Origin: Thermoanaerobaculia bacterium | GTDB lineage: Bacteria; Acidobacteriota; Thermoanaerobaculia; Gp7-AA8 | Direction: 5' to 3' | Assembly (NCBI GenBank): GCA_041748075.1 | Contig: JBGTDX010000083.1 | Location: forward strand, 16,383-80,382 | Length of the DNA: 64,000 nt | Shown: positions 18,029 through 57,223 of the stretch, piece by piece | How positions within the stretch are numbered: the first letter of the stretch is position 1 | Layout of the letters: every line of letters starts with the position of its first letter | The notes under the pieces: model-generated | Told to the model about the DNA's origin: nothing | The model's database searches: none | The model's input: only the letters and a program-made list of their open reading frames with translations | Program-made: the position numbers and the translations under genes

Positions 18029-20254
18029 TCAATCCGCATCCGCTCGAACGCGCCTGACCGGCACGATCTCGACGCGCGTACGCGTCGCGACCGGCCGATC
18101 AAAGAAACGGTCGATACGAGACGTTGCCAGCGCGACCTCGCGTGAAGGCTCGAGGCGGAATTCGGCATCGTACGAGCCTGTCGGGGCCGACGCTGTCAGA
18201 ATCGTGTCGGGCTGATAACTGAGTGCAGTTAAACGCACAACTCCGAAGCTTCCCGTTGAGCTGCCCGCAAAGCTTTCCCGTCGACCGATGAAGTAACGTC
18301 CGCCCCCCATTGCGAAGTCGAACACCATGTTCCCTCCTCTTTCGTCGAGGCGAAGAGACGCCGTTCCTGCGAGCGCTACGCGAGACGACAGATCAAAGGA
18401 TCCCTGGAGGAGAGCCTCGACCAGGAGCCGTTGCCCGGGCCTCGTTTCCCCGGGCAGACAGGCCGTGCGTCCGAGAGTGCCACCTTGGCTCTCCCACTCG
18501 ACCTGGAAGCACGGCGGATCTTCGGCGCGGATCTCCAACACCGCAAGTTGAACTCGATCCAGACGGAATGCAGATCCCAGGCTCGGGTAGACGGCCACTC
18601 GTTCGGGGAATGAGGAGGGGTACTCGTCGAAGAGGTGCAGCCGATGCTCTCCGAGGTCGCGAATCTCCCGGCCGATCATCTTCGCCTGATGCAGCTCAGG
18701 CCAGTTCGAGCGACCGCCGCCTTTGCGCGCCATGGCCGTGCCTTTGTTTGCCACCGACTCGGGATCGAAGGTCTCGATGGCGGCGCGCAATGCCAGGCGA
18801 TGGGGCCCGTCGCTCTCGCTTCTGGGGCCGAAAGACTCGGCCAGGTTCGTCATCGTACCGAACGCGAGTCCCGTTGAAAAGGTCGCGCCATACAACGGGA
18901 TCCAGGAACCGCCATCAAACGAACCTTGAAGCTCCGCCCAGGCGAAGAGCGGTGGCAAACCGGAAACGCAAGAGAAACTGGTGTAAAGATGAGGGGGTTC
19001 GGACGTCAAGCCGAACATAGAGACATCGGGAACGACCTGAATGGAGGCTCGGCGAACCAGCAGTCTCAGTTCTTCATCATTGTGCCGGGCGAGTCGCTTT
19101 GCAACGTCTGCCTCGAAGGCGGGCCAGTACGAATCCACGAAGGACGGGCTGACGTTACGGGCAATGGACTGATCGAGCACTTCCTTGATCCTCTCCCGTT
19201 GCCGCCGGTCCGCAGATTGTCGCTGGGCCAGTTCGAGGCCACCAGCAAGGCCAGCCAACGCCAACAACAGTGCGGTTACCGCTACAGCTTGCCGGTACCG
19301 TCGCACCCATTTATAGCTGCGCCACAGCCAGGTGATCGGACGCGCATGGATCGGCTTTCCCTGCAGGAAGAGCTCGAGATCATCAGCCAGTTCGCCCGCC
19401 GTCCGATAGCGCCTTTCTGGCTCTTTTTCGAGACAGTGAAGCACGATCGCCTCGAGATCGCGGTCGACGTCGCGGCGGAGACTCGAAAGCTTCGCGGGTT
19501 CGTCCTGCAACACCTGGCGCAGTGTGTCGATGATCGACTCTCCACGAAACGGCGGACGGCCAGCGAGTAGATCGTAGAGAAGCGCGCCGAGGGCGTAGAT
19601 GTCCACGGCGGTGGTGAGGACCCGCCCCCCAGCGGCCTGTTCGGGCGCCATATAACTCGGCGTTCCGACGATCGCATCGCTCTTGGTGAGGCTCGGCTCG
19701 TTCCCGAAGCGCCGCGCCAGTCCGAAATCCGCGACCTGGGGTTCGCCCTGAGAATCGATCAGGACGTTCGCCGGCTTCAGATCGCGGTGAACGACGCCCC
19801 GCCTGTGTGCGTAATCGACGGCCCGAGCGGTCTTCATGATGATCGTGGCCGCGCCATTCTGCTCTCGTCCCATCTCGTCGGGCCGTTCCCGGAGGCTCTT
19901 CCCGTCGATCAGCTTCATCGTGAAGTAGTGCGTTCCGTCATGTTCTCCGACCTCGTAGATGGGGACGATGTTCGGATGATCGAGTTGTGCGGCGGCTTCG
20001 GCCTCTCGCCGGAAACGACGCACAGAACCTTCAGATGCGAAATCTCCACCCAGGATGACTTTCAGCGCGACGAGGCGGTCGAGAGTGACCTGACGCGCTC
20101 TGTAGACGATCCCCATCCCGCCGCGAGCGATCTCCTCGAGAATCTCGAAGTCGCCGAAGTAACGGAGTTGCGATCCCGCCTCAAGACCCTTCTTCTCCGG
20201 GTCGCGGTCGGGGCCTCCTGAGATGGTCGACTCGAAGGATGAATCGGGACTCAT
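18029..20254 (-). CDS. Ser/Thr protein kinase with a C-terminal domain of about 450 aa of unknown function
   Basis: Hanks kinase subdomains: GGMGIVYRARQ, VALKVI, HRDLKPANVLID, DFGLAR, GTPSYMAPE. Confidence 0.85.
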   Translation of the reverse strand: MSPDSSFESTISGGPDRDPEKKGLEAGSQLRYFGDFEILEEIARGGMGIVYRARQVTLDRLVALKVILGGDFASEGSVRRFRREAEAAAQLDHPNIVPIYEVGEHDGTHYFTMKLIDGKSLRERPDEMGREQNGAATIIMKTARAVDYAHRRGVVHRDLKPANVLIDSQGEPQVADFGLARRFGNEPSLTKSDAIVGTPSYMAPEQAAGGRVLTTAVDIYALGALLYDLLAGRPPFRGESIIDTLRQVLQDEPAKLSSLRRDVDRDLEAIVLHCLEKEPERRYRTAGELADDLELFLQGKPIHARPITWLWRSYKWVRRYRQAVAVTALLLALAGLAGGLELAQRQSADRRQRERIKEVLDQSIARNVSPSFVDSYWPAFEADVAKRLARHNDEELRLLVRRASIQVVPDVSMFGLTSEPPHLYTSFSCVSGLPPLFAWAELQGSFDGGSWIPLYGATFSTGLAFGTMTNLAESFGPRSESDGPHRLALRAAIETFDPESVANKGTAMARKGGGRSNWPELHQAKMIGREIRDLGEHRLHLFDEYPSSFPERVAVYPSLGSAFRLDRVQLAVLEIRAEDPPCFQVEWESQGGTLGRTACLPGETRPGQRLLVEALLQGSFDLSSRVALAGTASLRLDERGGNMVFDFAMGGGRYFIGRRESFAGSSTGSFGVVRLTALSYQPDTILTASAPTGSYDAEFRLEPSREVALATSRIDRFFDRPVATRTRVEIVPVRRVRADAD

Positions 20255-20339
20255 GCCTGACCCCCTCGCCGCAGCCTGGAACGATCAGTCATCCCATGAC
20301 GCTGCACGGAATCAGTATCGTGCAGGGACCCTCCCGAAG

Positions 20340-20499
20340 CATGAGAGGTTTATGAGATTTTTGTGTGCCCGCTGTTTCGTCGATAGACCAGGTACTCGAT
20401 CCCGCCCTGATCGCGAGCGAAGGATGGCCCAATTCCAGCCACGGGCCGTTCCTTCCTGGTCCGCGCCGTTCCTCGCGTCAATTTGATGAACAGTACCTT
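20340..20499 (-). pseudogene. remnant of a gene 3' end homologous to the C-terminal tail of the kinase at 23496..26708
   Basis: The minus-strand translation ...RPVAGIGPSFARDQGGIEYLVYRRNSGHTKIS* parallels RPGWSWTWLGVSHPELARDEGRIEYMTYRRNSGSQ... The nucleotide similarity continues through the spacer into the next start codon. Confidence 0.4.
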
Positions 20500-23484
20500 T
20501 TACGAGTTCGGTGCTGGTTTGACCAAAGTAATCGTTTCCTCGGTGGAGACTTCGTTGGCGGTGCTGGAAGATCTGTCCAAGGTTTGAAATAGCGTGCCCA
20601 TCTGACTGAGGTCGCGGAGGACTTCGTTTCCATTGCGGAGTCGCCGGTCGAGGCTGGGGTCGATCATTCGCTCGATCAACGACGTGAGCTGCGAAGGAAT
20701 ACGCGCGTCGGGCACTTCCGGTCTGGTGGAAAGAATCTCCAGAGCCAGATTGGTCGAATCGTGTGATTTCCAGGGGCGACGTCCCGTGAATATCTCGCTT
20801 AGCACGATTCCGAACGACCAGACGTCCGCGCGAGAGTCGACCGACTCGCCTCGCAACTGCTCCGGCGAAATGTACGGCAAGGATCCGAGCACCCGCTGCT
20901 GCGACGTGATTGATGTCGTCCCCGCCGAACGTGCGATCCCGAAGTCAAGAAGAACGGTCCGGCCGGATCGGGTGAGCATGACATTCGAGCTCTTCACATC
21001 GCGATGAACTACGCCGGCCTGGTGAAGTGCGGCGAGCGCAGAAGCGACTTCCAGGGCCACCTGGTACGCTGTGAGTTGATTCCAGGATGACCGCCGGATC
21101 GACTCCGCCAGCGTGTCACCTTCGAGCAACTCCATGGCCAGATAGATGCGACCGTCATGCTCACCGCGCTCGAGGAGGCGCACGACATTCGGGTGGGCTA
21201 ACGAAGAGATCACCGCTCCTTCCCGTTCGAGGCGTTTGCGCGCTTCCTCTTTTTCGATCTCCAGCTCGGGAAGAAGCTTGATTGCCGCGAAGGAGTCGTC
21301 GTGAACGTTGACTGCGCGAAAGACTTCGCCCATGCCCCCGGATCCGATCTTCTCCATCAATTCGTAGGCGCCAATCCTCTGCTTCAGCCCATCGGCCAGA
21401 CCTCGAAGCGGGCGTCTGACGTCAGGGAGGGCCAGAAACCTCGTGTCGCCGACTTCGAATCGTTCATTGCGGAGGACGATCGTCGACCGATCGAGCAGAC
21501 GCTGCACGCCGACGCCGATCTGGATTTCCGAGGTTTTGATGCCCGCGTCAAGAAACATTTGCTTCAACCCTTCGATCAGCGCTTCCTTCGAGTCGAGCTG
21601 AGCTGTCGTCAGGCGAGTGATCCCGGCGAAAATGAGACGACTGTGGCGATCGAGCATTCGCCAGTCTGACTCCGCCACGCGAAGTGTACGCAACCTCTGA
21701 TTCTCGATTCCCACAGAGAGCTGACGCGCAACGTCGAGGAGAAATTCTTCATCTCGAGCATCGAACTCCTCGTCGGAGAGTTTCCAGCCGATTCCGATGA
21801 GGGCAACGAGCTCTCCGGTCACTCGGACGGGAACAATCAGACTCGCCTGCGTTCGTTGAATCGTGGCGCTGTCCTCGTCGCTGAGACCTCCGCCGGAGGC
21901 CCGAAGGATCGAGGAGAGATCGGCCAGGGAGCTCGTGGAGCTGATGGTCGTGTCTCGCACGTCAACGTCCACGAGCCCGGCCTGAGCCGCCACGTGGAAG
22001 AAGGGCATGAAGGGCTCACGGCTGAAGATCACGATGGATCGAGCTCGCAACGTATCGCAAAGATGGAGGGCGACGCTGTGAAAGAGCACGTCCGTCGTCG
22101 ATGCCTTGAGGATCTCTTCGCTGACCACTCGTAGCGCTTCAGCGTGTTGATAGGGCTCGCGGAAGAATCTCTGATCGACGACCCGTTGAATCCTGTTCTT
22201 CAGGGGGACGAAGATCCCGGCGATTGCCAGCGTGGAGACAATGGTTACTGTCTGGTTCTGCAGGCCCGATGAGGCCACGAACAACCGTCCCAGAACAGCC
22301 ACGAGCCCGACGTAAAGGAGGATCAATATGACACTCAGCGCGGAATACGCGATCGTCTTCTTGATGAGTCTGTCGATTCCGAGCAGGTTGCGTTTCAGGA
22401 TGGCGAAGGCAAAGGTAATCGGAATGATCATCAGACCTCGAGGATCGATTCCGAATTGGATTTCGTTCATTCCTTCTTCTTCGCTGATTCGAAGATTCAT
22501 GACCGTCGGAAGCAACACGGAGACAATGATTCCAACGATGATTCCCCAGACTGGCCAACGGATCTGGCGTTTCTCCTCCAGACTCGATTGGCGATAGGCC
22601 TTGATGAGATTGACGGGGGCCAGAATGAAATAGGCGATCCCCGAAAGGATGAAGCCTACGAGGCCGACCAGCGCGGGCGTCGGCATGTCAGTCCCCATCG
22701 CATCGATCGTGCCGAAAAAGAGCAAGGCGAACGCCGCGGGGAGGAGGTACAGCGCCGGCTTGAGTGCCGGCTTTCTCTCCACCAGCGGCCGCGGACGGGG
22801 GAAGATCAGACTGAGGTGCAGCGTCATGGCCGGGATGAAAACCAGGATGGATAACACCGAGAAGAGCATCAACACGACGAGAAGAGGATCCTTTACTGCG
22901 TTAGCGACAAGCCTCTCCGCAGCGGGAGACAAAGCGAGAATTCCGAGAAATCCGCACAACCAGTGGAACAGACGTGCGCGCGCATCACCTAGTTTTCGAT
23001 AGTGCACCAGAGTCCCCAGCCCGAGGAGGAATGCGGCCATGAGCGACCCGGAGATGAGCGAGATGATGAAGAAGCGCGAGTCGATGAGCCGTCGCGGAGT
23101 CACCGTGACCTCGCGTTCTCCCGTGATCTCGGCCTTTCCGCGCTTCTGTTCGACGCGGCCGAAAACATAGCGCCGCGGCTCGCCCGTGAATAGCCTCGTT
23201 GCACCGGCCTTGCCCGGCGAACGATGATCGATCTGGAGAAGAAGCTCGCCACTGCGCACTCCGGCGTCGTCGGCGGGACTATGCTTGTCGACGTCGATCC
23301 ACACCGACTGATCACCCTCCGGTTCCTGGCGGAAACGGATTCCGTCCCAGGCAGACCGGTAGAGAATCGTGACGGCGATCGACAGCGTGGCAATTGCCAG
23401 GACGCCGAGGACACCACTGGCGATGAGAAACGCTCGAAGTTCTGTGGCCATTGATCCCTGACTTGGAGATTCGATCGGAACCAT
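20500..23484 (-). CDS. membrane sensor Ser/Thr kinase: N-terminal TM, periplasmic PDZ-like segment, about 8 TM helices, GAF-like domain, C-terminal Hanks kinase
   Basis: The kinase motifs are at the C-terminus (GSGGMGEVFRAVN, HRDVKSSNVMLT, DFGIARS). The N-terminal two-thirds is polytopic. Confidence 0.8.
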   Translation of the reverse strand: MVPIESPSQGSMATELRAFLIASGVLGVLAIATLSIAVTILYRSAWDGIRFRQEPEGDQSVWIDVDKHSPADDAGVRSGELLLQIDHRSPGKAGATRLFTGEPRRYVFGRVEQKRGKAEITGEREVTVTPRRLIDSRFFIISLISGSLMAAFLLGLGTLVHYRKLGDARARLFHWLCGFLGILALSPAAERLVANAVKDPLLVVLMLFSVLSILVFIPAMTLHLSLIFPRPRPLVERKPALKPALYLLPAAFALLFFGTIDAMGTDMPTPALVGLVGFILSGIAYFILAPVNLIKAYRQSSLEEKRQIRWPVWGIIVGIIVSVLLPTVMNLRISEEEGMNEIQFGIDPRGLMIIPITFAFAILKRNLLGIDRLIKKTIAYSALSVILILLYVGLVAVLGRLFVASSGLQNQTVTIVSTLAIAGIFVPLKNRIQRVVDQRFFREPYQHAEALRVVSEEILKASTTDVLFHSVALHLCDTLRARSIVIFSREPFMPFFHVAAQAGLVDVDVRDTTISSTSSLADLSSILRASGGGLSDEDSATIQRTQASLIVPVRVTGELVALIGIGWKLSDEEFDARDEEFLLDVARQLSVGIENQRLRTLRVAESDWRMLDRHSRLIFAGITRLTTAQLDSKEALIEGLKQMFLDAGIKTSEIQIGVGVQRLLDRSTIVLRNERFEVGDTRFLALPDVRRPLRGLADGLKQRIGAYELMEKIGSGGMGEVFRAVNVHDDSFAAIKLLPELEIEKEEARKRLEREGAVISSLAHPNVVRLLERGEHDGRIYLAMELLEGDTLAESIRRSSWNQLTAYQVALEVASALAALHQAGVVHRDVKSSNVMLTRSGRTVLLDFGIARSAGTTSITSQQRVLGSLPYISPEQLRGESVDSRADVWSFGIVLSEIFTGRRPWKSHDSTNLALEILSTRPEVPDARIPSQLTSLIERMIDPSLDRRLRNGNEVLRDLSQMGTLFQTLDRSSSTANEVSTEETITLVKPAPNS

Positions 23485-23495
23485 TTCTTCCCAGC

Positions 23496-26400
23496 CTAGT
23501 CCTTGCGAAACTGTACCTCGACGAGTCTGATTTCGCGCTGACTCCCGCTGTTTCGTCGATACGTCATGTATTCGATCCGGCCCTCGTCGCGAGCGAGCTC
23601 AGGATGGCTCACTCCCAGCCACGTCCAGCTCCATCCTGGTCTGGAGGGCAAGGTGTCGATCTCGATCACCGCTTCCGACCACGGGCCCTCCGGACGGTCG
23701 GCGAGACGAATCTGGATTCGCTCGTCGAGAACCCGGCTTCCGACGGCCATGAATTTGCCGAGGAATGCATTCCAATGGACGCTGAAAATCCCCCGCTGAA
23801 TTCCTGCACTGAGAACCGGCTGCGCGTCCTTCCAGTCGCTGCTCCAGCGTCCGTGTGCCCCAAGAAACCGCCACGCAGAGCGGTCAAGGGCCGCGGCAAG
23901 GGGGACGCGCGCCAGTCGGCACGAAGCCTCGAGGCCGCGAGGCTCGCAGGCGTATGCGTACATCTGATCGCCGACGACCAGCGCCGCCGCTCCCCACGCC
24001 GGTTCATCCGGTCCGAAGAGCAGCGTTGGGGTATCCGTTTCCGGGCGAACCGCCGGCCGATCGCCCGTGAGACTCCCCCGGGTCCAGACGGCCAGAGACG
24101 TCCCGACGGACTCGTCGTCTCGCGGCGGCTGCCTCAGCATTCGACGGTAGAAGACGAGAAGGCGATCTCGCTCGCCGTCCGCGACGACCGCTGCGGGCGC
24201 GAGAATCCACCCCACCCCGCACGGCTCAACGCAGTTCGCGCCACTGTGCGCTGCGTTGAAGGCCGCTTCCTCCTTTGTCAACGGCAATAGCTCGCTCGGC
24301 ACGCCTGTTCCATCCTTCAACTCGTCGAGGACGTCGAGGCCCTTCCTGGCATCCAGCTTGTCCGTCCAGGCAAGAGTCGCTTGTCTCGAAGTCGAGCCCT
24401 TCCTCCCCGAACGTGTCGTTGTCGTCTCCCCGAAGACCCAGACGGACTCTCCGCCGAGACGCGCGCTGTAGCCTCCCTCGCGATCGACTACGGTCTCGTC
24501 GAAGTCGAGCGGTCCCATGTCGCGCGCCTCCTCGACGAAGATCACCGGCAGAAGAGCCTGCGTGCGGGCGGCGGCTTGGGGACGCCTCCAGGACCGATAG
24601 AGACTCGCGAGTCTGACGAGCGCCTGCTGCGTCGAGGCGTTGTTTCCGCCACGCTCTGTTTCCAGCACCGGGATCGCCTCCAGGAGCAGCGTCTCGGCCT
24701 CCCCGAACCGCTCGCGGGCGGTCAGGAACGCGCCGAGGTCTGACCGAAGCCTGGCCGCACGCGCGGATCGCTCCAGTCCAACTTCTCCCAGAAGGCTCAA
24801 TGCTTCGCGGAGGACCGGCTCCGCCGCGGCGTCGCCGACTTGCAGCAAGCGAGCACCGTTGCGCTCGAGAATCGTGGCCAGCGACCGCTGCGTTTCGAGC
24901 AGACTCGGCGCCCCCGGCGGGAGTACTCTTCTACGCCGCGCCAACGAGGCGCGGTAGACCGACTCGAGAGCCTCGTCATTCGCGTCGGCCGGCCGCAGCG
25001 ACTTGGCCTCGAGCCGCTCAACCAGACGCTCCATGAGCTCGATCATGTGCTCGTCCGCGCTGGCGATCTTCCCGCGCATCTGCGCCAGGATCCGCCGTCG
25101 CAACGCGTCAGCCTCTTCCGGGGCCAGCAGCTCCGTCATCAGGACGGCCGCATGGACTGCGTCGGGGTCGCCCCGATCGAGCGCCCGATCGACGAGCGTC
25201 AAACCCTCACGCATCAACTTCTCCCGCCCCTCATATTCGCTGCTCGAGGAGAAGAAGCCGTAACGAAACAACTCGAGCAGGAAGAGTCGGTTCACCGCAT
25301 ACGAGGCGAGGCCAGGACTCCCCTCTCCGAGCAGCGAATTGTGCAGATCCATCGCCTCGCCGGATAGCTTCACATAACGGCTGCGGTCTCCGAGCAGCGC
25401 CGCCTGCACCGACTGAGCCTCCAACGCGTTGCGAGCGGCCTCCGACTCGGCGCGTTGCTGCGCAGCTTCAGACCGAAAGTACAGGGAGGTGATCACCACG
25501 GCACCAGCGAGAAGGATGACCAACAACCCGGCCGCGGCCGCGAACGCAGCGCGATGCTTCCGGACGAGTTTCTTCAATCGATAGGAGCGACTCGGCGGGC
25601 CGGCCAGGACAGCTTCGTCGGCAAGGTGTCGTCTTGCATCGGCAGCCAGCTCGGATGCGGATTGGTACCTTCGGTCCGGATCCTTTTCCATCGCGCGCAG
25701 CGTGATCCACTCCAGTTCCCCGCGAAGCTGCCGGGCCAGAGAGCGGATGTCCGTGTGCCGCCGCCGCGCGATCTCCGGTGCTGAGTCCCCGAGACTGCCG
25801 AACTTCGTCGTCGGCCTCGGCGGCTCCTCCTCCTGGATGATGCGGAGCATCTCCACCGCCGCGGCCCGCCGAAGGGTGGCCGGATCGAAAGGAAGGGCGC
25901 CAACGAGAAGCTCGTAGAGCAGGACTCCAAGAGAGTAGATGTCGGTCCGGGCGTCGACGTCGAGCGCCGTCGTTCCCGCCTGCTCCGGACTCATGTACTC
26001 GGGGGTGCCCATCATGACACCCTGCTTGGTGAACAACGTCTGCTCGGTCAGTGTCTGGCCGGTTGCCGTGGCCAGCCCGAAGTCGATGACTTTCGGAACC
26101 GGGGTTCCATCGTCCGAGGACACCAGGACGTTCGACGGCTTGACGTCCCGGTGGATGACGCCTTTCTGATGGGCATGCTGAATTGCGTCGCAAACCTTCG
26201 TAAATAGAGCCAGCCTTTCTCGAAGTGGAAGACATCGCAAGTCGCAGTACTCGGTGATCCGGATGCCGGGCACGTACTCCATGACGAAGTACGGCCGTCC
26301 CTGATCCGTGGCGCCTGCGTCGAAGACTTTGGCCACGTTGGGGTGGTTCATGACGGCGAGAGCCTGACGCTCGGCAGCGAAGCGGGCCAGCACTTCGCGG

Positions 26401-26708
26401 GTGTCCATGCCCGGCTTGATCACTTTGAGTGCCACACGGCGGCGGATCGGCTCGATCTGCTCGGCGAGGTACACGATGCCCATTCCGCCCTGGCCAAGGA
26501 TCTGGAGGATCCGATAGTTGCCGACGTGAGTGGGGTGGTCAGTTGAAAGAAGTTGCGATTCTGCGGGAGCTCCCCCGGTAATGGTGGACTCGCCCTCTCC
26601 CTCATTGGGCGCGAGCTCCAGATTCTGCAGGCATTTCGGACAGAGTCCGTTCGCGATCTCCTTCGGAAGGGCGTCACCACAGTCGGGGCATCTTGGATCG
26701 GAGTTCAT
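23496..26708 (-). CDS. Ser/Thr protein kinase with an N-terminal zinc ribbon, a TM helix, a TPR-like helical region and a C-terminal beta-rich domain (DUF4185-like guess)
   Basis: CPDCGDALP...CPKCL zinc ribbon; GQGGMGIVYLAEQ, HRDVKPSNVLV, DFGLA. It lies 12 bp upstream of the next kinase. Confidence 0.85.
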   Translation of the reverse strand: MNSDPRCPDCGDALPKEIANGLCPKCLQNLELAPNEGEGESTITGGAPAESQLLSTDHPTHVGNYRILQILGQGGMGIVYLAEQIEPIRRRVALKVIKPGMDTREVLARFAAERQALAVMNHPNVAKVFDAGATDQGRPYFVMEYVPGIRITEYCDLRCLPLRERLALFTKVCDAIQHAHQKGVIHRDVKPSNVLVSSDDGTPVPKVIDFGLATATGQTLTEQTLFTKQGVMMGTPEYMSPEQAGTTALDVDARTDIYSLGVLLYELLVGALPFDPATLRRAAAVEMLRIIQEEEPPRPTTKFGSLGDSAPEIARRRHTDIRSLARQLRGELEWITLRAMEKDPDRRYQSASELAADARRHLADEAVLAGPPSRSYRLKKLVRKHRAAFAAAAGLLVILLAGAVVITSLYFRSEAAQQRAESEAARNALEAQSVQAALLGDRSRYVKLSGEAMDLHNSLLGEGSPGLASYAVNRLFLLELFRYGFFSSSSEYEGREKLMREGLTLVDRALDRGDPDAVHAAVLMTELLAPEEADALRRRILAQMRGKIASADEHMIELMERLVERLEAKSLRPADANDEALESVYRASLARRRRVLPPGAPSLLETQRSLATILERNGARLLQVGDAAAEPVLREALSLLGEVGLERSARAARLRSDLGAFLTARERFGEAETLLLEAIPVLETERGGNNASTQQALVRLASLYRSWRRPQAAARTQALLPVIFVEEARDMGPLDFDETVVDREGGYSARLGGESVWVFGETTTTRSGRKGSTSRQATLAWTDKLDARKGLDVLDELKDGTGVPSELLPLTKEEAAFNAAHSGANCVEPCGVGWILAPAAVVADGERDRLLVFYRRMLRQPPRDDESVGTSLAVWTRGSLTGDRPAVRPETDTPTLLFGPDEPAWGAAALVVGDQMYAYACEPRGLEASCRLARVPLAAALDRSAWRFLGAHGRWSSDWKDAQPVLSAGIQRGIFSVHWNAFLGKFMAVGSRVLDERIQIRLADRPEGPWSEAVIEIDTLPSRPGWSWTWLGVSHPELARDEGRIEYMTYRRNSGSQREIRLVEVQFRKD

Positions 26709-32287: not shown

Positions 32288-32363
32288 TGGCTGTGGCGGC
32301 AGGATTCGAACCTGCAACCTACGGATTAACAATCCGCCGCTCTACCAGTTGAGCTACACCACA
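32288..32363 (-). tRNA. tRNA-Asn (anticodon GTT), CCA encoded
   Basis: Hand-folded cloverleaf: acceptor TGTGGTG/CGCCACA, D-arm GCTC..GAGC, anticodon arm GCGGA-TTGTTAA-TCCGT, T-arm GCAGG-TTCGAAT-CCTGC, discriminator G; 76 nt. Confidence 0.8.
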
Positions 32364-38799: not shown

Positions 38800-40110
38800 A
38801 TGAAAACCATCCCGAAGATACCCCCCGCGAGAGGAACGATTCGCGTCCCCCCGTCGAAATCCGCCACTGCTCGCGCTCTGCTTCTGGCGGCAATGTCCTC
38901 CGGGCAGACCACGATCCGAAATCCTCTCGATTCCGATGACACGCGCTACATGCTCGAAGCGATCCGAAAGATCGGTTTCGAGGTGTCTGGAACATTCGCA
39001 ACGGCGCTGACCATCGGCGAGCGGGTGAGCATGTCCGCGAACGATGTCGAGATCGATGTCGGTATGGCGGGCACGGCCATGCGTTTCCTCACCGGGTTTC
39101 TCAGCTTCACGCCGGGCCGCTACATCCTGAAAGGTGACGAGCGCATGCACGAGCGTCCCATCGGCGATCTCGTCGATGCCCTCCGTACCTGCTCCGCGGA
39201 GATCGAGTATCTGGGACAGGAGGGCTTCCCTCCACTTCAAATCCGGGGAAAGATCGTCCGCGGCGGCTTCGAGACGTCGGTCGATGCATCCACATCGAGC
39301 CAGTTCGTGTCGTCGGTCATGATGGCAGCCACGCGGCTTCCCGGCGGTATCACCATCAGAGTTGAATCGCCGGTTTCGCAGCCCTACCTGGACCTCACCG
39401 CCGCCATGCTGGTCTCGTTCGGCGCGCACGTGGAGCAGCTCGAAGCGGGAGGAGTGAGGGTATCGGCCGGAGCGATGAATCTCGAGGAATTCGTCGTCGA
39501 AGGGGACTACTCCTCCGCCTCCTACTGGCTTGCTGCCGCTGCCGCCAGCGAAGGTGAAGTGATTCTCGAGGGACTCTCGCCTGCGAGCGTGCAGGGTGAT
39601 GCAGCCTTCATCGACCTCCTCGTGCAACTCGGTTGCTCTGCGTCATGGGAAACAGAACGCCTGTATTTCCGAGGGGCGAAGAAACTCGGTGGCGGCAAAT
39701 TCGACATGAACCGGATGCCGGACGTGGTCCCGACACTCGCTGCAATCGCTCCGCTCGCATCAGCGCCGATCGAGATCTCGAACGTCGCAAACCTCAAGGT
39801 CAAAGAGTCGAATCGCCTCGAGGCAATCGCTTCGGAGCTGGCGAAGCTCGGCGCACGCTGCGAGACGCGTGAGGACGGACTTCTCATCCATCCGGGTTGG
39901 AGCGACTCCGCAGCATCCATCGATCCCCATGGGGATCACCGGATCGCCATGGGATTCGCCATCGCGGGACTCGCACGCGGCAACGTCTCCATCGAGGACG
40001 AACGAGTGGTCTCGAAGTCGTACCCGCGATTCTGGCGCACGCTCGACGAACTGGTAGAGAGCTCCGGTCACGCCGCCGAAAGCCCGCAGCCTGCCCCTCC
40101 GGCTATTTGA
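38800..40110 (+). CDS. aroA: 3-phosphoshikimate 1-carboxyvinyltransferase (EPSP synthase)
   Basis: PPSKSATARALLLAA...DDTRYMLEA and a full-length 436-aa EPSP synthase pattern. Confidence 0.9.
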   Translation: MKTIPKIPPARGTIRVPPSKSATARALLLAAMSSGQTTIRNPLDSDDTRYMLEAIRKIGFEVSGTFATALTIGERVSMSANDVEIDVGMAGTAMRFLTGFLSFTPGRYILKGDERMHERPIGDLVDALRTCSAEIEYLGQEGFPPLQIRGKIVRGGFETSVDASTSSQFVSSVMMAATRLPGGITIRVESPVSQPYLDLTAAMLVSFGAHVEQLEAGGVRVSAGAMNLEEFVVEGDYSSASYWLAAAAASEGEVILEGLSPASVQGDAAFIDLLVQLGCSASWETERLYFRGAKKLGGGKFDMNRMPDVVPTLAAIAPLASAPIEISNVANLKVKESNRLEAIASELAKLGARCETREDGLLIHPGWSDSAASIDPHGDHRIAMGFAIAGLARGNVSIEDERVVSKSYPRFWRTLDELVESSGHAAESPQPAPPAI

Positions 40111-40243
40111 TTTGTGTCCTGGATTCGCATCTAATCCCCCAGGCCGCACTTCCATGCTGCGACAAACCCGACGAGGCTCCTGATTGCCAGCCACGAATCC
40201 TTCGCACATTCACCGCAGATCGCGGCTTCCGGCAGAGTGCTGA

Positions 40244-42469
40244 ATGACCAGCCAGACAGACCGCTCGATCCGATCGGAAGCGCCGTCACACGCGCTCACG
40301 ATTCCGCTGCCGGAGCTCGACTGTGTCTCGTGCGCACACCGCCTTCGACTCCACCTGAGCAGAATCGAGGGACTCGATGTCAAACTGAGTCTCGCTGAGA
40401 AGTCCGTGACCCTGCCGCCCGCGTCCACTCCCGACTCGATTCAACAGGCGGTCGCAGCGATTCGGAACAACGGATTCGAGCCCGGAGCCGCGCGTATCTT
40501 CATTCCCTTATTCGATCTGCCTGCAGGCTCCCCTGCGGCGGTCGATATCGAAAATTCTCTCGAAGGCTCCGAGGGCGTCCTTCGCGCAATCGTGCACGTG
40601 ACCGACCAGGCGGTAGAGGTCTGGTATGTTCCCGGAAGAATCGACATCGCAGAGATCCGCCAGCAGATCCGCAGAACGGGCCACCGCAGCGAGGCACCCG
40701 CGGGATCGGCGGAGATTGAGAGCCGGCTGGACAAGACTCATCGCCGCATGCGTCTCGAGGCCATCGCCGCGGTGGCCGCCGCGATCCTGATCGCATTTCT
40801 CTCCATTCCTCTGGCGGGCGAACGAACTCCGACCGTGGCCGAACCAGTTGTTTCGGCTTCCCGGACTTTCGTGCAGGGCATTGTTCCGCAGCTCTTCTCG
40901 ATCGATCCGGTTGGGCTGGAGATCACGATTCTGTTTGTAACGTTCGGCTTCCTCGTCTGGCTCGGACGGAGCTGGATGGAATCAGGCTCGTTTACCCTTC
41001 TGGGACGGAATCCCGATTCGAACACGACCGCAGCGGCAGCTGTGTTCGTCCTCGCGGCTGGATTGACCATCTCGTCGATCCGTGTCGCGTGGCTGGAAGT
41101 CCCCAGCTACGCGTTTCCCGGATACGCCACGCTCTTCTGGATGATCTCGCTCTATTCACTGGCACGCCTGATGGAATCCCGGGAAATGCGACGAATCCGA
41201 ACAAAAGATGCGGCCCTCGGAGTGAGGTCTACAGCCCGAGGCACCGAAATCCAGCAGCGCGCTGAAACGACCATGTCGCTCACATTGAGAGTGATCATCT
41301 GCGTGGCGATCGCATCGTTCGTGCTCTGGTTCGACTTCGCACCGGATTCTCCATTGCTCTACGCCGTGATCGCTTTCGCGGGGATCATGATCGTGGCTCT
41401 CCCATCGCTGTTCGGCCTCGCGGCTCCCAGCGCGATTTCCACCGGAATGCAGGAAGTCACGAGGCGAGGCGTCATCGTCCGGGACGCACAGGCATTCGAA
41501 GACCTGAGCCGCCTGCGAAAAATCGCAATCCTCAAGGAGGGAGTCCTTACGGAGGGGCGCCCGGCGACGTCCGATTTCGTCCTTCTTGGCGGAATCGACC
41601 AGCGGGAATTGCTCGAGGCCGCGGCTTCGCTCGCGGCGCTCGCGCAATCCGACCTCGGGCGAGCCGTCGTCGCGCGGGCCGGACAATTCACCTCTCGAAG
41701 GGTTTCGGAATTTCACGAATCTCCCGGCAGGGGATTTCGAGGGATGGTGAATGGAAAAGAAGTCGCCGCCGGCACTCCCCGCTTTGTCGAGTCCCTTGGC
41801 TTCTCACTCGAAGGCCTTGATGAAGAGCTCACCCGCTATGGAAGCGAAGGAAAAAATTCGCTGGTCCTCGCCATCAAAGGGAACATAGCAGGCTTGATCG
41901 CCTTGCGTGATGCCCCCCTCGAAGGGGCAGATCGAGCCGTCGCGCGTCTCGAGGGGCTCGGGGTCACAACTCACCTGTTCGGTTCCGACGAAACAGCAAC
42001 ACTCGAGGCGATCGCAGCCCGGATGGGCATCCGGCATGTGACTGCTGAGGTCGAGCCAGGGATGTTGAGGGGATCGATGGCCGATGCGAAGGAGCACGGC
42101 AAACCGCTGGCTGTGCTCTGTGCGGAAAGGGGCGACGGTCTTCTGCTCACCGCCGCCGATCTCCCCATCGCGTTCGCGGAAGCGTCGAGCGAATCGCTCG
42201 ACTACGCCAGAGTCGTTCTTCCAGGCGCGGGGCTGGGTCCCATCGCCGATGCAATCGTCATTTCGCGAGCCGCATCTCGAGCAGCGGCACGCCGCATACG
42301 GTGGAGCGTGGGATATCACGCGGTCATGGCGCTCTTCGCGACCCAGATTTTCCATCCCCTGTTCGGAACCCTGATCTCACCGGCGCTCCTCGCCCTCGTC
42401 ATGTTCTCGGCGATGGGGGCGGCAATCTGGAACAGCCGGAGCTTCGAGAAAGAGGCAGGAACGCTTTGA
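40244..42469 (+). CDS. degenerate P1B-type (heavy-metal) ATPase homolog with two HMA-like domains; catalytic motifs lost
   Basis: Overall P1B topology (HMA domains, 8 TM, P/N-domain region) is present. DKTGTLTEG is replaced by LKEGVLTEG, the TM CPC by LPS, SEHPLA by QSDLGRA, and GDGxND by GDGLLLTAAD. The A-domain loop (TGES) is reduced to about 35 aa. Confidence 0.6.
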   Translation: MTSQTDRSIRSEAPSHALTIPLPELDCVSCAHRLRLHLSRIEGLDVKLSLAEKSVTLPPASTPDSIQQAVAAIRNNGFEPGAARIFIPLFDLPAGSPAAVDIENSLEGSEGVLRAIVHVTDQAVEVWYVPGRIDIAEIRQQIRRTGHRSEAPAGSAEIESRLDKTHRRMRLEAIAAVAAAILIAFLSIPLAGERTPTVAEPVVSASRTFVQGIVPQLFSIDPVGLEITILFVTFGFLVWLGRSWMESGSFTLLGRNPDSNTTAAAAVFVLAAGLTISSIRVAWLEVPSYAFPGYATLFWMISLYSLARLMESREMRRIRTKDAALGVRSTARGTEIQQRAETTMSLTLRVIICVAIASFVLWFDFAPDSPLLYAVIAFAGIMIVALPSLFGLAAPSAISTGMQEVTRRGVIVRDAQAFEDLSRLRKIAILKEGVLTEGRPATSDFVLLGGIDQRELLEAAASLAALAQSDLGRAVVARAGQFTSRRVSEFHESPGRGFRGMVNGKEVAAGTPRFVESLGFSLEGLDEELTRYGSEGKNSLVLAIKGNIAGLIALRDAPLEGADRAVARLEGLGVTTHLFGSDETATLEAIAARMGIRHVTAEVEPGMLRGSMADAKEHGKPLAVLCAERGDGLLLTAADLPIAFAEASSESLDYARVVLPGAGLGPIADAIVISRAASRAAARRIRWSVGYHAVMALFATQIFHPLFGTLISPALLALVMFSAMGAAIWNSRSFEKEAGTL

Positions 42470-42855
42470 TGCAACCGGGACCTCTCGAAATTGCGGTTAC
42501 GCTCTCCGGAGTCGTCATGATCGCCCTGGCCCTTTGGTACCTGCGCCCACCTTCCGCACGGCGTCCCGCAGCCACCTCAACGGCGTTTCAGGAAGTGGTG
42601 GTCCGTATCCTTCCCGATCGATTCGATCCGTCCACGATCATCCTGGCCGCGAACACTCCGGCCAAGATACGGTTTCAGCGCATCGACGAATCCGACGAGT
42701 GGGAGACCTGCGTCGCTCCCGGTCTCGACATCGAACGGAAACTACCAGCGGGCAAGGTCACGACCATCGACGTCCCGTCCGACCAGCCCGGCGTCTATCC
42801 GTTTCACTCCACGGTGACGAGGCGCGACGGAACGATCGTCATAGCCGCAGCGTGA
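42469..42855 (+). CDS. small membrane-anchored cupredoxin-like domain protein, translationally coupled to the ATPase homolog (TGATG overlap)
   Basis: An N-terminal TM, then a beta-rich domain (ILPDRF...IRFQRIDE...GVYPFHSTVT) resembling the cupredoxin-like proteins often encoded beside copper ATPases. Confidence 0.45.
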   Translation: MQPGPLEIAVTLSGVVMIALALWYLRPPSARRPAATSTAFQEVVVRILPDRFDPSTIILAANTPAKIRFQRIDESDEWETCVAPGLDIERKLPAGKVTTIDVPSDQPGVYPFHSTVTRRDGTIVIAAA

Positions 42856-43675: not shown

Positions 43676-44185
43676 TCACCGCCGCAGATAAATCTTCTTG
43701 GTCTCGACCAGCCTGTTGCCTGGAAGATCCTCGCTCCACGCGGTGACTTTGATGTCTCCGGTCCGGTCGAGCGATCCGAATGCTGCGCGCACGTGATAGC
43801 GGACGTGGGAGGCCGACTGTGCGCCGACATGACCCGCGCGGTAGATGAACCGCTTTGTTCCCGTCGAGGTCATCATCTCCGAGGCCTGGAGATCAGATGC
43901 CGGCACGGTGCTAAGCACGATGAGCTCACTCGGCATCTCGACCTCGAAAACGACGTCTTTCATTCTGTTTACACCGCGGTTTCTGATCTCGACCTTCAAC
44001 TCTTCGGTGGCACCTTCCGAAAGATCGGTCGGTACACCGATGTCGATGGACAACGCGCGTCCGTCCCCGGTCACTGCAACACCGGAATGCTTGCAGGCGC
44101 CGAAAGCAAAGAGCGCCACGAGCGCAAGGGCCAGGGCAAGAACCCTCGAATGGCCTGAATTCTGTTTCATTGTGATCTCCTTCAC
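43676..44185 (-). CDS. hypothetical lipoprotein
   Basis: Signal peptide with lipobox (FAFGAC); no recognisable domain. Confidence 0.45.
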   Translation of the reverse strand: MKEITMKQNSGHSRVLALALALVALFAFGACKHSGVAVTGDGRALSIDIGVPTDLSEGATEELKVEIRNRGVNRMKDVVFEVEMPSELIVLSTVPASDLQASEMMTSTGTKRFIYRAGHVGAQSASHVRYHVRAAFGSLDRTGDIKVTAWSEDLPGNRLVETKKIYLRR

Positions 44186-54496: not shown

Positions 54497-57223
54497 TCAC
54501 CCCTTCGGCGGCGACCAGTGCACGATCACGTTGTGCGGCTCGTTCAGGGACTCGTCCGAGATCACCATGAGAAACCTGCCGTCCCGCGCGACGTCGAACC
54601 AAACGATCTCCTCGGATACCTCGAACAGAAATCGCGGCTCCGGCCGTGCCAGATTCGCGCTCGTTTCGAGATTGACTTCGTAGATCTTGTTCTCACGCTC
54701 ATAGTACAGAGCTCGCCGCTCCCGGTCCCAGATCGGGACACGACCCCCCTCGGTCGAGATCTGGATGCTTCGTCCCGGTCCCGGAAACGGCTTTAACCAG
54801 ACTTCGTCCCGTCCCGTTTCGCCGGACGTATACGCGACGAAGAGCCCATCGCGAGAGAATCGCGCTCCAGTCTGCGATTCCGGTACAATAAGGAAGGGGC
54901 GCGCATTCGGTTCCCCCTCCAGATCGGCCAGCCACAGGTCGTTTCGGGAACCGGGATCGAATCTGTAGTAGACGACGACCTTCCCGTCGGGTGACACGTC
55001 GCAGGGGTGCGTGAGATCATCCGAACCGACGATCACTCGTTCCTCTCCCGAGCCCTCGAGATCCTTGATGAAGATGTCCGGGCGTCTCAACCGGTCCGAA
55101 TCAAAGACAAGGGCATTCCCCGAGGGGGTCCAGACCGGATTCGCTTCCTCTGCCGGATGCGTGGTGAGCCTGCTGCGCGTATCGCGGCTCAGCCCATAGA
55201 GCCAGAGATCACTCGTCCCGGTGCGCGTGTCCCTGAGGTCGAACGCGACCTGCTGGCCATCCGGGGAGATCGCCACGGAAAAGCCACTCACGCCTTCCAC
55301 CAGGGCGGCGCCGCGACTGCCATCCCGATCGAACCATCGAATCGAACTGTTGGAATCCGCTTTCCTGTAGCCGATCGTTCCATTGCGGGCGGAGGTGAAC
55401 GAGGCGCCTCCCGTCGGCATGAAGTAGTTGACCCCACGCACCACCGGGATCGGCTTTCCCGTGAAACGGAGTGCCTTCTCGTCAAATGGCATCGCCACCA
55501 GAGTCCCGTCGACCACATGCAGCAGGTGCCCCGAGTCGAGGAGATCGAACTTCGAGCCGATCTCCCCCACCTCGGCCGTGTCGGGCGAATCGAGCCGGCC
55601 CGAGCGCAACTTGTAGCTGTTCCTCTCCCGCGACGGTTCACGAGTCAGCGACATATAGAGAAAGCGGTTCCCGTTGCGCAGAAACTTCGGATACATCGGC
55701 GCGATTTCGAATCGACCAGGCTCCGGCGCGACGATCCGCTCGCTCGTGCCTCCCAGCGCCGATACCCGAAAGATCCCGTTTCCCTCGGTCGCGAACAGGA
55801 TGACGTCCTCGGGGCTCCACGTGCCCCCGCGAGGGATACCCTGCACCGCCGAGATGTCGCGCGAGGTTCCTTCGACGATGTCCATCACCTTCAGCCGCCC
55901 ATCCTCGATCACCGCGAGCTCGTTGCCACGCGGCGACCAGCATAAAAGGCTCATCCGCCCGCTGCCGGGAAACATCTTCAGCGAGTCGGAGCCGAGCTCC
56001 CGCAGACCGATGACCCATGCCCCGTCAGGTCGCTTGACGCGCATAGCGACGTTGCGGCCATCCGGAGAGAGGAGAGGATCACCCACATCGACGTATTCGG
56101 CCGTCCGGCCTGGGAACGACAGGTGGATGGTCTCCGGATCCGAAGGAGCAGTCACGTACCAGTACAGATTCGATGCGACCAGGGCGAGTGCTGCGAACCC
56201 TCCCAGCAGCCAGGCCAGCCGCGACCGATGCTTTCTCCGGAACGCGAGCGGAGCAGCGACTCCCGCCTCCGAGCCTGCTTCGCTGATCCACTGGAGCTCG
56301 CTCGCGATGTCGTGCGCCGATTGCCATCGGTCGTCCGGATCTTTTTCCAGGCACTTCCGAACGACATGATCGAGCGCGGGGGGCGACATCGGCGCCACGC
56401 TCGATATCGGCTCCGGCTGCTGCGAGACGATCGCCGCGATCAGACTCGTCTTCGACGCACCCTTGAATGCCCGTCGCCCCGTCGCCATCTCGTAGAGCAC
56501 CGCACCGAAGGCGAAGATGTCTGTTCGCGCATCCGCCTCGAGACCTTCGAGCTGTTCCGGCGCCATGTACTGGAAGGTGCCGAGGATGGTTCCTTCCGCC
56601 GTCAGCGGCGCCTTCTCAGTCAGCAAGTCGGATGCGTGGGTACCGGAAACTGGTGCGGCGGCGATTCGGGCAAGGCCGAAGTCGAGCAGCTTCGCTCCGC
56701 TGCGCGTGAGCATCACGTTGCCCGGCTTGAGATCGCGATGGACGATGCCGCGGCGGTGTGCTGCCGCGAGCGCCTGGGCGATGTGCTGGCCGTGGCGGAG
56801 CACCTCCGTCATGGGAAGCGGCCCCCGTTTGAGGCGGTCGGCGAGCGATTCTCCCTCCAGGTACTCCATCACGAGAAAGCTCGTCCCGCCCTCGTGTCCC
56901 ACGTCATGGAGCGTGCAGATGTGCGGGTGGCTGAGTGCGGAGATCGCCTTCGCCTCGCGATCGAAGCGCGCGTTCAGCTTCGCGTTCGCCGCCAGCGCTG
57001 CGGGAAGGACCTTGACTGCCACGTGGCGGTCGAGCCGCGTGTCGAGCGCCTTCCACACCTCTCCCATTCCCCCCGCGCCGATGGGCGCGACGATCTCGTA
57101 CGGTCCGAGGCGCGTACCTGTCTTGACGGGCAAGGGAACAGCATAGAGAGTCGAGCCGTCCTGGTCCACTCCTCGTCGAACCCGTACCCCGTGCAGTCCT
57201 GGACCGTGGCAGGTGCGTTTCAC
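54497..57223 (-). CDS. Ser/Thr protein kinase with a TM helix and a C-terminal TolB-like (PD40/WD40-like) beta-propeller
   Basis: GAGGMGEVWKA, HRDLKPGNVML, DFGLAR, then repeated PD40-like units (SPDGQ...DLWL). The start is uncertain because the first M is far upstream of the kinase core. Confidence 0.8.
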   Translation of the reverse strand: MKRTCHGPGLHGVRVRRGVDQDGSTLYAVPLPVKTGTRLGPYEIVAPIGAGGMGEVWKALDTRLDRHVAVKVLPAALAANAKLNARFDREAKAISALSHPHICTLHDVGHEGGTSFLVMEYLEGESLADRLKRGPLPMTEVLRHGQHIAQALAAAHRRGIVHRDLKPGNVMLTRSGAKLLDFGLARIAAAPVSGTHASDLLTEKAPLTAEGTILGTFQYMAPEQLEGLEADARTDIFAFGAVLYEMATGRRAFKGASKTSLIAAIVSQQPEPISSVAPMSPPALDHVVRKCLEKDPDDRWQSAHDIASELQWISEAGSEAGVAAPLAFRRKHRSRLAWLLGGFAALALVASNLYWYVTAPSDPETIHLSFPGRTAEYVDVGDPLLSPDGRNVAMRVKRPDGAWVIGLRELGSDSLKMFPGSGRMSLLCWSPRGNELAVIEDGRLKVMDIVEGTSRDISAVQGIPRGGTWSPEDVILFATEGNGIFRVSALGGTSERIVAPEPGRFEIAPMYPKFLRNGNRFLYMSLTREPSRERNSYKLRSGRLDSPDTAEVGEIGSKFDLLDSGHLLHVVDGTLVAMPFDEKALRFTGKPIPVVRGVNYFMPTGGASFTSARNGTIGYRKADSNSSIRWFDRDGSRGAALVEGVSGFSVAISPDGQQVAFDLRDTRTGTSDLWLYGLSRDTRSRLTTHPAEEANPVWTPSGNALVFDSDRLRRPDIFIKDLEGSGEERVIVGSDDLTHPCDVSPDGKVVVYYRFDPGSRNDLWLADLEGEPNARPFLIVPESQTGARFSRDGLFVAYTSGETGRDEVWLKPFPGPGRSIQISTEGGRVPIWDRERRALYYERENKIYEVNLETSANLARPEPRFLFEVSEEIVWFDVARDGRFLMVISDESLNEPHNVIVHWSPPKG

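Follow-up and report, generated by a model that had tools for sequence, protein, structure and literature searches.

P-type ATPases are defined by the aspartate on which they are phosphorylated. What, then, is encoded by a gene that has the architecture of a P1B-type heavy-metal ATPase and carries another residue at that site? We address this question for a gene pair at positions 40244 to 42855 of a 64,000-nucleotide stretch of contig JBGTDX010000083.1 from a Thermoanaerobaculia bacterium (the whole stretch is referred to as the window herein). An earlier inspection of the letters, made without database searches and called the sequence-only reading below, had described the first gene as a catalytically dead ATPase homologue. 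The two genes, and what they encode, are as follows.

40244..42469, + strand: pseudo-P1B-ATPase gene, CopA-derived, 741 aa, without the A domain and without catalytic motifs
42469..42855, + strand: partner gene, 128 aa, with an N-terminal transmembrane anchor and a Cupredoxin_1 domain, CupA-like without the Cys/Met ligands

The TGA of the 741-aa open reading frame (ORF; 42467-42469) and the ATG of the 128-aa ORF (42469-42471) have one base in common. These coordinates and the Cupredoxin_1 match bear out the claim that the ATPase stop overlaps the start of a gene for a membrane-anchored cupredoxin-like protein. It is our view that the pair very probably comprises a conserved non-pumping pseudo-ATPase and its partner, while the specific role of the pair can be proposed with modest confidence. 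The family to which the 741-aa protein belongs is a pseudoenzyme derivative of the CupA/CopA system, and it is real, conserved, and rare.

Retained fold and lost motifs of the 741-aa protein

The 741-aa protein has the P1B topology of eight transmembrane helices (MA, MB, and M1 to M6), a HAD-like P domain with an N-domain insert, and an N-terminal HMA domain. Pfam located HMA at residues 21-78 (3.7e-6) and Hydrolase at residues 431-599. Motif positions were taken from a HMMER alignment to Archaeoglobus fulgidus CopA (3j09), and the segments of the protein are given here with their nucleotide positions in the window.

40292..40483, + strand: HMA domain 1, residues 17-80, with the CxxC motif (C27/C30) at nt 40322-40333
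40484..40693, + strand: HMA-like domain 2, residues 81-150, no Cys, GSPAA replacing GMxCxxC, VPG invariant
40706..41218, + strand: transmembrane helices MA, MB (with the MB' platform), M1, and M2, residues 155-325, from the helices of the AlphaFold2 (AF2) model
41219..41257, + strand: M2-M3 linker, residues 326-338, the site of the ~110-aa A domain with TGES in canonical pumps
41258..41464, + strand: M3-M4, residues 339-407, with LPS (386-388) for CPC
41531..41545, + strand: LKEGV (430-434) for DKTGT
41579..41923, + strand: N-domain scaffold, residues 446-560, with SEHP changed to QSDL (468-471) and G495/G497 (GxG) and G504 kept
42239..42466, + strand: M5-M6, residues 666-741, with the CopA Y-N changed to Y-H and M...S changed to S...A

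When aligned with the active CopA proteins P0122 and P0009 (related proteins and loci are given by our P and L numbers), the protein shows a gap of ~110 columns between M2 and M3. The M2-M3 linker has only ~10-25 residues, so the A domain and its TGES motif cannot be present. Pfam E1-E2_ATPase matched over profile positions 106-180 only, which is the tail of the profile, at 23.9 bits and below the 28.1-bit cut-off. Similarly, the matches to the NCBIfam CopA and TIGR01525 models begin at profile positions 431 of 838 and 157 of 560, respectively, i.e., past the A domain. The deletion of the A domain, as proposed in the sequence-only reading, was thus recovered from the alignment gap, from the starts of the profile matches, and from the AF2 model, where no such domain is found.

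That reading had further held that the motifs needed for transport are all changed. In the alignment to 3j09 this stood for DKTGT, CPC, and the HP site. It did not stand for the second Asp of GDGxND, since HMMER aligned AERGD to GDGIND for this third P-domain motif and a D occupies the second-Asp position, though the motif is degenerate and not conserved among orthologues (GDG, ANG, or HEA). TGDN is replaced by GSDE (580-583). In the profile alignments and in the PDB alignments alike, the phosphorylation site is occupied by Leu instead of Asp, and no family member has an Asp there; the variants found in the family are [LM]KE[GR]x, MKQSG, LHDPG, and LDYEA. With no A domain, no phosphorylatable Asp, no Mg/phosphate motifs, no N-domain His-Pro, and no transmembrane Cu(I) ligands, the protein is left without the means for a Post-Albers pumping cycle. 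Judged from these alignments, the 741-aa protein is predicted to be incapable of phosphorylation at the canonical site and to have no canonical transmembrane Cu(I) site.

Public annotation calls such proteins 'heavy metal translocating P-type ATPase', 'cation transport ATPase', or 'HAD family hydrolase', and an ordinary active heavy-metal pump would be the straightforward meaning of the first of these names. Besides the missing Asp, A domain with TGES, and CPC, the profile scores speak against it. Across the CopA and TIGR01525 models the 741-aa protein reached 176-181 bits against cut-offs of 346-1316, with 176 bits on TIGR01525 itself (cut-off 346), and it reached 117 bits on TIGR01511 (cut-off 397). 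The four other family members that were scanned scored 72-188 bits on TIGR01525, again below the cut-off, and no curated NCBIfam model passes its cut-off for the family proteins. In contrast, the active control P0009 passed both TIGR01525 (621 bits) and TIGR01511 (588 bits) with full-length profile coverage. On the motif losses and these scores we rejected the active-pump reading at the sequence level, and we regard it as hardly credible, the least probable of the readings that we weighed.

The AF2 model of the 741-aa protein has a predicted local distance difference test score (pLDDT) of 90.7 and a predicted template-modelling score (pTM) of 0.87. It consists of two HMA folds of beta-alpha-beta-beta-alpha-beta pattern, eight transmembrane helices, and P and N domains, with no domain in the M2-M3 linker. 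The assignment of HMA-like domain 2 is supported by this AF2 pattern, by a match of residues 21-159 to PDB 1p6t (E 4e-4), and by weak CopZ matches. Taken together with the Pfam domains, the model agrees with the P1B architecture that had been read from the letters: an HMA domain with CxxC, a Cys-free second HMA-like fold, eight transmembrane helices, and a P/N scaffold. The folds that Foldseek ranked highest were those of CopA and ATP7B. Global superposition was best with 7xuk and 7xun (the ATP7B C983S/C985S/D1027A mutant, with and without ATOX1) at template-modelling scores on the query (TMq) of 0.73 and 0.65, respectively, and 7r0g (A. fulgidus CopA, 'ion uptake') also reached a TMq of 0.65. 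Entries labelled E2P or E2.Pi reached a TMq of only 0.38-0.46. The predicted structure thus superposes best on structures labelled as E1-state or mutant ATP7B forms. For the N-domain scaffold, the matches to 3a1d and 2b8e had scores on the target (TMt) of 0.89-0.90.

Occurrence, ancestry, and selection

A word-indexed protein search yielded five close relatives of the 741-aa protein (96, 73, 63, 53, and 55% identity). All five are without Pfam E1-E2_ATPase, and one is named as coming from a Thermoanaerobaculia metagenome-assembled genome (MAG). Three distant members, P0121, P0124, and P0132 (31, 25, and 28% identity), came from an exhaustive profile search across 1.84 billion cluster representatives; they are collinear with the query and likewise have no A domain. 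A second word-indexed protein search, with the family profile, gave no new members. The family is very rare, at ~8 protein clusters among ~15 billion proteins, and a search by two peptide patterns found one GTDB species representative with the locus. Its members come only from MAGs of uncultured Thermoanaerobaculia and related Acidobacteriota, and the MAGs GCA_035512555.1, GCA_041750915.1, and GCA_039931435.1 carry the pair.

Comparison of the members shows what has been kept. C27, C30, and A31 of HMA domain 1 are invariant across members of 25-73% identity, and the CxxC of this domain is the only canonical metal site that all members keep; in P0003 a miscalled start had hidden the motif, which the true N-terminus carries. 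An Asp precedes the first Cys of this domain in five of seven lineages, as opposed to 5% of the HMA loops of active relatives. In M4, where CopA has CPC, the family has LPS, FPA, VPA, APG, SPS, ANP, or SAG, and the Pro of this motif is gone in P0124 and P0132. The block from MA to M2 (residues 155-325) is the most conserved, including WLGRSWMESGSFTLLGRNPDSN and SYAFPGYATLFWMI. Within the transmembrane region the only residues invariant family-wide are R242, R255, D258, W299, and R308, all in this block, and W362, F363, A374, A377, P705, and P713.

The seven dead proteins cluster as a single long-branched clade next to active CopA proteins in a neighbour-joining tree built on the M3-M6/P/N region that all have in common. 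The best active match of the family profile is P0009, the CopA of locus L007, at 361 bits. The Cupredoxin_1 gene lies 3' of the pseudo-ATPase gene with a stop/start overlap of 1 or 4 nt in all seven lineages. Loci L001-L004 and L008-L010 carry the pair together with common neighbours such as aroA, BcrAD_BadFG, and OmpW; this neighbourhood, common in whole or in part, points to vertical inheritance rather than to a functional operon with the neighbours. Based on these comparisons, the family would have a single origin and appears to be vertically inherited.

Locus L007 itself has a gene for a transmembrane-anchored Cupredoxin_1 protein (4550-4975) directly upstream of the active CopA gene (P0009, 5001-7520). 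Both of the CupA ligand positions are occupied by Cys in this cupredoxin, and downstream of CopA lies a CopZ-like HMA gene; this is a CupA-type arrangement outside streptococci. A Cys-bearing cupredoxin beside P0009 is consistent with the dead pair having descended from a CupA-CopA-type pair.

In a further P1B-like protein that has no A domain, P0222 (581 aa, L012 366-2111), DKTGT, HP, and part of GDxxxD are preserved and M4 reads SPA; beside its gene are a DUF2911 gene and the end of an H+-PPase gene. We considered P0222 as an intermediate to the family and rejected it, as it nests among active CopA proteins in the neighbour-joining tree. Its loss of the A domain may be independent, or its gene call may be truncated.

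Having lost so many motifs, the gene could simply be decaying, or it could be an artefact of assembly or annotation. Its pace of change fits decay as well: pseudo-ATPases are 53% identical where neighbouring proteins of the same genome pair are 75-83% identical, and 27-33% identical where neighbours are 36-67% identical. Codon alignments show otherwise. The ratio of non-synonymous to synonymous substitution rates (dN/dS, ω) is 0.14-0.30 for the pseudo-ATPase gene and 0.09-0.29 for the partner gene, values that are rough in the many saturated pairs, compared with 0.08-0.17 for aroA, 0-0.09 for the MBL-fold gene, and 0.06-0.09 for dnaJ. In the unsaturated pairs, we counted 27.5 non-synonymous and 31.5 synonymous differences between the window and L004 (binomial P = 1.8e-5), and 12 and 26, respectively, between L001 and L005 (binomial P = 1.2e-7); a further binomial test on the pseudo-ATPase gene gave P = 1e-50. 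ω is thus significantly below 1 even where dS is not saturated, and the ORFs are intact in at least seven independent lineages and assemblies at dS > 1. The overlap with the partner and an upstream element described below are conserved as well. We therefore rejected the pseudogene reading on dN/dS, invariant residues, and binomial tests, and leave it a very small probability. Both outcomes answer checks proposed in the sequence-only reading: selection across orthologues proved to be purifying (ω 0.14-0.30, significant in both unsaturated pairs), and no frameshift or stop was seen in orthologues, the ORF being intact in seven lineages. The constraint on the pseudo-ATPase gene appears real but relaxed. 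With a predicted fold that is kept, catalytic residues that are lost, and purifying selection across lineages, the protein has the marks of a pseudoenzyme.

Every domain is constrained, with ω of at most ~0.50. The lowest values are those of MB-M1-M2 (0.09-0.22), while the P and N domains range over 0.11-0.50. Such a pattern could also be produced by a non-canonical, ATP-independent transporter, in which the eight-helix domain would be a passive metal or ion channel or a uniporter gated by the HMA and cupredoxin domains. In its favor, MB-M1-M2 and M3-M4 are the most strongly constrained segments (ω 0.09-0.25), polar residues within or close to the membrane are conserved (E246, S247, D258, S259, N260, Y289, Y294, W362-F363-D364, and Y691-H692), and the AF2 model is nearest to structures labelled E1 or ion-uptake. 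However, the canonical ion-site residues are gone (CPC of M4, Asn of M5, Met/Ser of M6) and no conserved ligand set has taken their place. By homology with CopA, moreover, most of the invariant residues of the transmembrane region would sit at membrane interfaces and not along a pore. We consider a passive transporter quite unlikely, though well ahead of the pseudogene and the active pump.

The cupredoxin partner and the upstream element

The 128-aa partner matched Pfam Cupredoxin_1 at 5.8e-15 and has its transmembrane anchor at residues 8-25 (nt 42490-42543). Its AF2 model, built from six sequences, is of low confidence (pLDDT 60.7) and places a transmembrane helix at residues 5-24. Upon comparison with known structures, the partner matched Streptococcus pneumoniae CupA (2mry/4f2e; E 1.3e-6). 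CupA is a transmembrane-anchored cupredoxin that serves as a Cu(I) chaperone, binds copper at the S1 and S2 Cys/Met sites, and hands it to CopA (PMC7558416). The partner resembles CupA in its N-terminal anchor, its cupredoxin fold, and the position of its gene beside a copA-type gene.

The ligands of CupA are not shared. With the CupA motif defined as in PMC5552934 and PMC7558416, we found that FHSTVTRRDG of the partner aligns to FACGMNMMHG of CupA, so that the Cys/Met ligand motif is absent. No Cys, His, or Met is conserved across the seven partners, and neither Cys80, the single Cys of the window protein, nor its His113 is kept in L001. The partner also lacks Cys at both of the positions that Cys occupies in the L007 cupredoxin (AECTGE, FRCGH). 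What the partners do have in common is an acidic N-terminus before the transmembrane helix with a basic stretch after it, and a conserved acidic loop that reads DxSxEWE, or has a similarly acidic sequence in the distant members. By the positive-inside rule, the beta-sandwich would face the cytoplasm, as for CupA.

Alignment of the orthologous upstream regions revealed a conserved element, which overlaps a small divergent ORF.

40105..40137, + strand: promoter-like or operator-like element of 33 nt, ATTTGATTTGT-N6-GATTCGCAT-NN-AATCC
40068..40130, - strand: divergent small-ORF remnant of 20 codons, MRIQDTNQIAGGAGCGLSAA and stop
Same element in relatives: L001 7958-7990, L002 6856-6888, L004 5235-5267, L005 77-109, L008 ~1085-1117, L009 ~3136-3168, L010 ~5914-5946

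Twenty-five of the 33 positions are invariant in all seven lineages, some of which have proteins that are just 25-30% identical, and the flanks are not conserved. The window contains the element once, against 0 matches expected by chance. Among the JGI metagenome contigs that we scanned, three contain it, all of this locus type, with no sign of a wider regulon. By eye, the element reads as a promoter with a -35 box TTGATT, a 17-nt spacer, and a -10 box TCTAAT (T[CTA][TA]AAT in the family), and a GGATT-N7-AATCC dyad lies over the -10 box. A consensus promoter/terminator scan and an inverted-repeat search of the region upstream of the pair found nothing.

The divergent ORF (MRIQ[DE]TNQI...) has its ribosome-binding site and first nine codons inside the element on the - strand. 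In the distant loci it encodes 76-78 aa (L009 2931-3161 and L010 5730-5966, both - strand), and the hydrophobic C-terminal stretch of this protein looks by eye like a transmembrane anchor. The window and L001 have only a remnant of 19-20 codons. The first nine codons are conserved with their third positions included, and the element outlives the body of the ORF, which suggests a DNA-level signal for the pair. This is indirect and suggestive of a pair that is expressed and regulated. The pair can thus be described as a two-gene, translationally coupled unit with its own conserved promoter-like element upstream.

Role of the pair and relation to known systems

Upstream of the pair lie dnaJ, metallophosphoesterase, MBL-fold, and aroA genes, and downstream of it plsC-like, BcrAD_BadFG, and OmpW genes. 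We found no active P-type ATPase within the 64-kb window, and none was seen among the called genes at any related locus. PADLOC gave no defence-system match.

In the mechanism that we propose, a CupA-like cupredoxin chaperone and a CopA-type P1B-1 Cu(I) pump would have become non-catalytic as a pair, and the two proteins would associate in the membrane as a complex on its cytoplasmic side. On real pumps, the MB' platform is the presumed docking site of metallochaperones, as in the work on LpCopA and CopZ. The acidic loop of the partner may dock on the corresponding Arg-rich platform of the pseudo-ATPase, where R242, R255, and D258 fall in the segment aligned with the MB' platform and the start of M1, or it may occupy the space vacated by the A domain. 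HMA domain 1 could bind one soft metal ion at its CxxC, and no other chemical input seems plausible. Ancestry suggests Cu(I) as the metal, though the DCxxC loop of five of seven lineages would leave Zn/Cd-type metals possible. A GMDCxxC loop is typical of ZntA, which we take as a lead only. The complex would then act as a metal-responsive scaffold, a sensor, or a hand-off module and not as a transporter. The sequence-only reading had likewise suggested repurposing as a metal sensor, chaperone, or scaffold; this may be favored by the CxxC of HMA domain 1 being the one canonical metal site common to all members and by the loss, in the cupredoxin, of Cys positions present in the nearest active pair. 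Overall, we favor, as somewhat better than an even prospect, a membrane complex of non-pumping pseudo-ATPase and pseudo-chaperone derived from a CupA-CopA pair, its function probably being that of a metal-binding scaffold or sensor.

Several points weigh against this proposal. A single CxxC in each protein does not suffice for buffering. The pair has no linked gene for a regulator, a kinase, or a DNA-binding protein, and its neighbors are housekeeping genes. MB-M2 is the most constrained part of the protein, which a transport-related or lipid-facing role would explain no less well than docking. With the N-domain glycines retained, residual nucleotide binding may be possible. The neighbor-joining tree has no support values, and the long branch of the family may be misplaced; dS exceeds 1 in most pairs and is thus saturated there, which makes those ω values rough. 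Lastly, CupA homologues without the Cys...CxMxM motif also occur beside apparently active CopA proteins in Rhizobiales (PMC5552934), so ligand loss alone is no proof that the partner is inert.

The pseudo-ATPase may instead be a non-catalytic regulatory or assembly subunit of another membrane protein, such as the active CopA of the genome or a cuproenzyme assembly factor. Regulation of active paralogues is a general pattern among pseudoenzymes. A P/N scaffold that is useless for catalysis is wholly kept under selection here, and the family is sister to active CopA proteins. Neither the window nor the called genes of the related loci offer an active P-type ATPase as its target, though, and the cupredoxin is the sole partner that is constantly linked. 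This possibility overlaps our proposal of a pseudo-ATPase/pseudo-chaperone complex and does not exclude it; as a separate explanation we hold it to be rather unlikely, a little less so than a passive transporter.

A more specific idea is that the proteins are the first true pseudo-P-type ATPase family, in which a pump scaffold is frozen in an E1-like form as a metal-responsive membrane receptor. The cupredoxin would sit in trans at the A-domain site or on the docking platform, and metal binding at HMA domain 1 would be read out through the P/N scaffold with no hydrolysis or transport. We regard this version as unlikely.

When compared with CopA-type P1B-1 Cu(I)-ATPases (3j09/7r0g; Legionella pneumophila CopA, 3rfu; human ATP7B, 7xuk), the family has the same N-terminal HMA domains, eight-helix topology, and HAD-like P domain with an inserted N domain. 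It differs from these pumps in having no A domain, DKTGT, TGDN, GDGxND, SEHP, or CPC, nor the Asn of M5 or the Met/Ser of M6. As in CupA and in the CupA-like genes beside active CopA genes (e.g., in L007), the partner has one N-terminal transmembrane anchor, a Cupredoxin_1 domain predicted to be cytoplasmic, and a gene that adjoins a copA-type gene. Unlike CupA, it has no Cys at either ligand position and no Met-rich site, and unlike the ATPase of the CupA system, the ATPase here has N-terminal domains of HMA type and not of cupredoxin type.

A survey of P-type ATPases found that 99.77% keep DKTGT and that 22 of 9,634 are without it, and it suggested that these may be 'non-functional or highly specialized' (Pedersen et al. 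2014, PMC3896382). These cases, which the survey did not analyse in more depth, are pumps that are complete but for single point changes (PMC3896382). The present family, by contrast, is conserved, has a fixed partner, and has lost an entire domain along with every motif. Pseudomonas aeruginosa PcrP/PA2803 offers another parallel, having a HAD fold that has lost catalysis, with a non-catalytic function reported for PcrP (PMC12632274). PcrP/PA2803 is a small soluble HAD protein with no metal-chaperone partner, whereas the present family is a membrane P-type ATPase homologue.

Our literature searches found no described family of pseudo, dead, or A-domain-less P-type ATPases, in agreement with the sequence-only reading, which could name no described bacterial example. 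In particular, we found no description of a conserved family that lacks the Asp, the A domain, and the ion site and is yet selected together with a dedicated partner. If our interpretation is confirmed, the P1B scaffold would be reusable for a non-transport role. Structural studies of chaperone docking would also gain a naturally occurring A-domain-less, E1-like form. Since these genes are labelled 'heavy metal translocating P-type ATPase' and encode proteins predicted not to pump, metal resistance inferred from them would be wrong. The impact is limited by the rarity of the family and its restriction to uncultured MAGs.

Further features were noted around the pair. In distant loci, a CNNM/CorC-type (Mg/Co efflux-like) gene lies between aroA and the pair (L009 1557-2900, L010 4374-5693, L011 1680-2999, and L015 754-2097 on the - strand); it is absent from the window and the close relatives. 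Between the plsC-like and BcrAD_BadFG genes of the window is a 169-aa ORF with no Pfam match (43676-44185, - strand), and L001 has a 164-aa ORF without a Pfam match at the matching position, the likeness being one of size and position alone. Rfam and ARAGORN found a single RNA gene in the window, a tRNA-Asn (GTT) at 32288-32363 (- strand). Three Ser/Thr protein kinase genes stand in tandem at 18029-26708 (- strand), encoding proteins of 741 aa, 994 aa with GAF, and 1070 aa with TPR and DUF4185, and a fourth kinase gene, with PD40 repeats, is at 54497-57223 (- strand).

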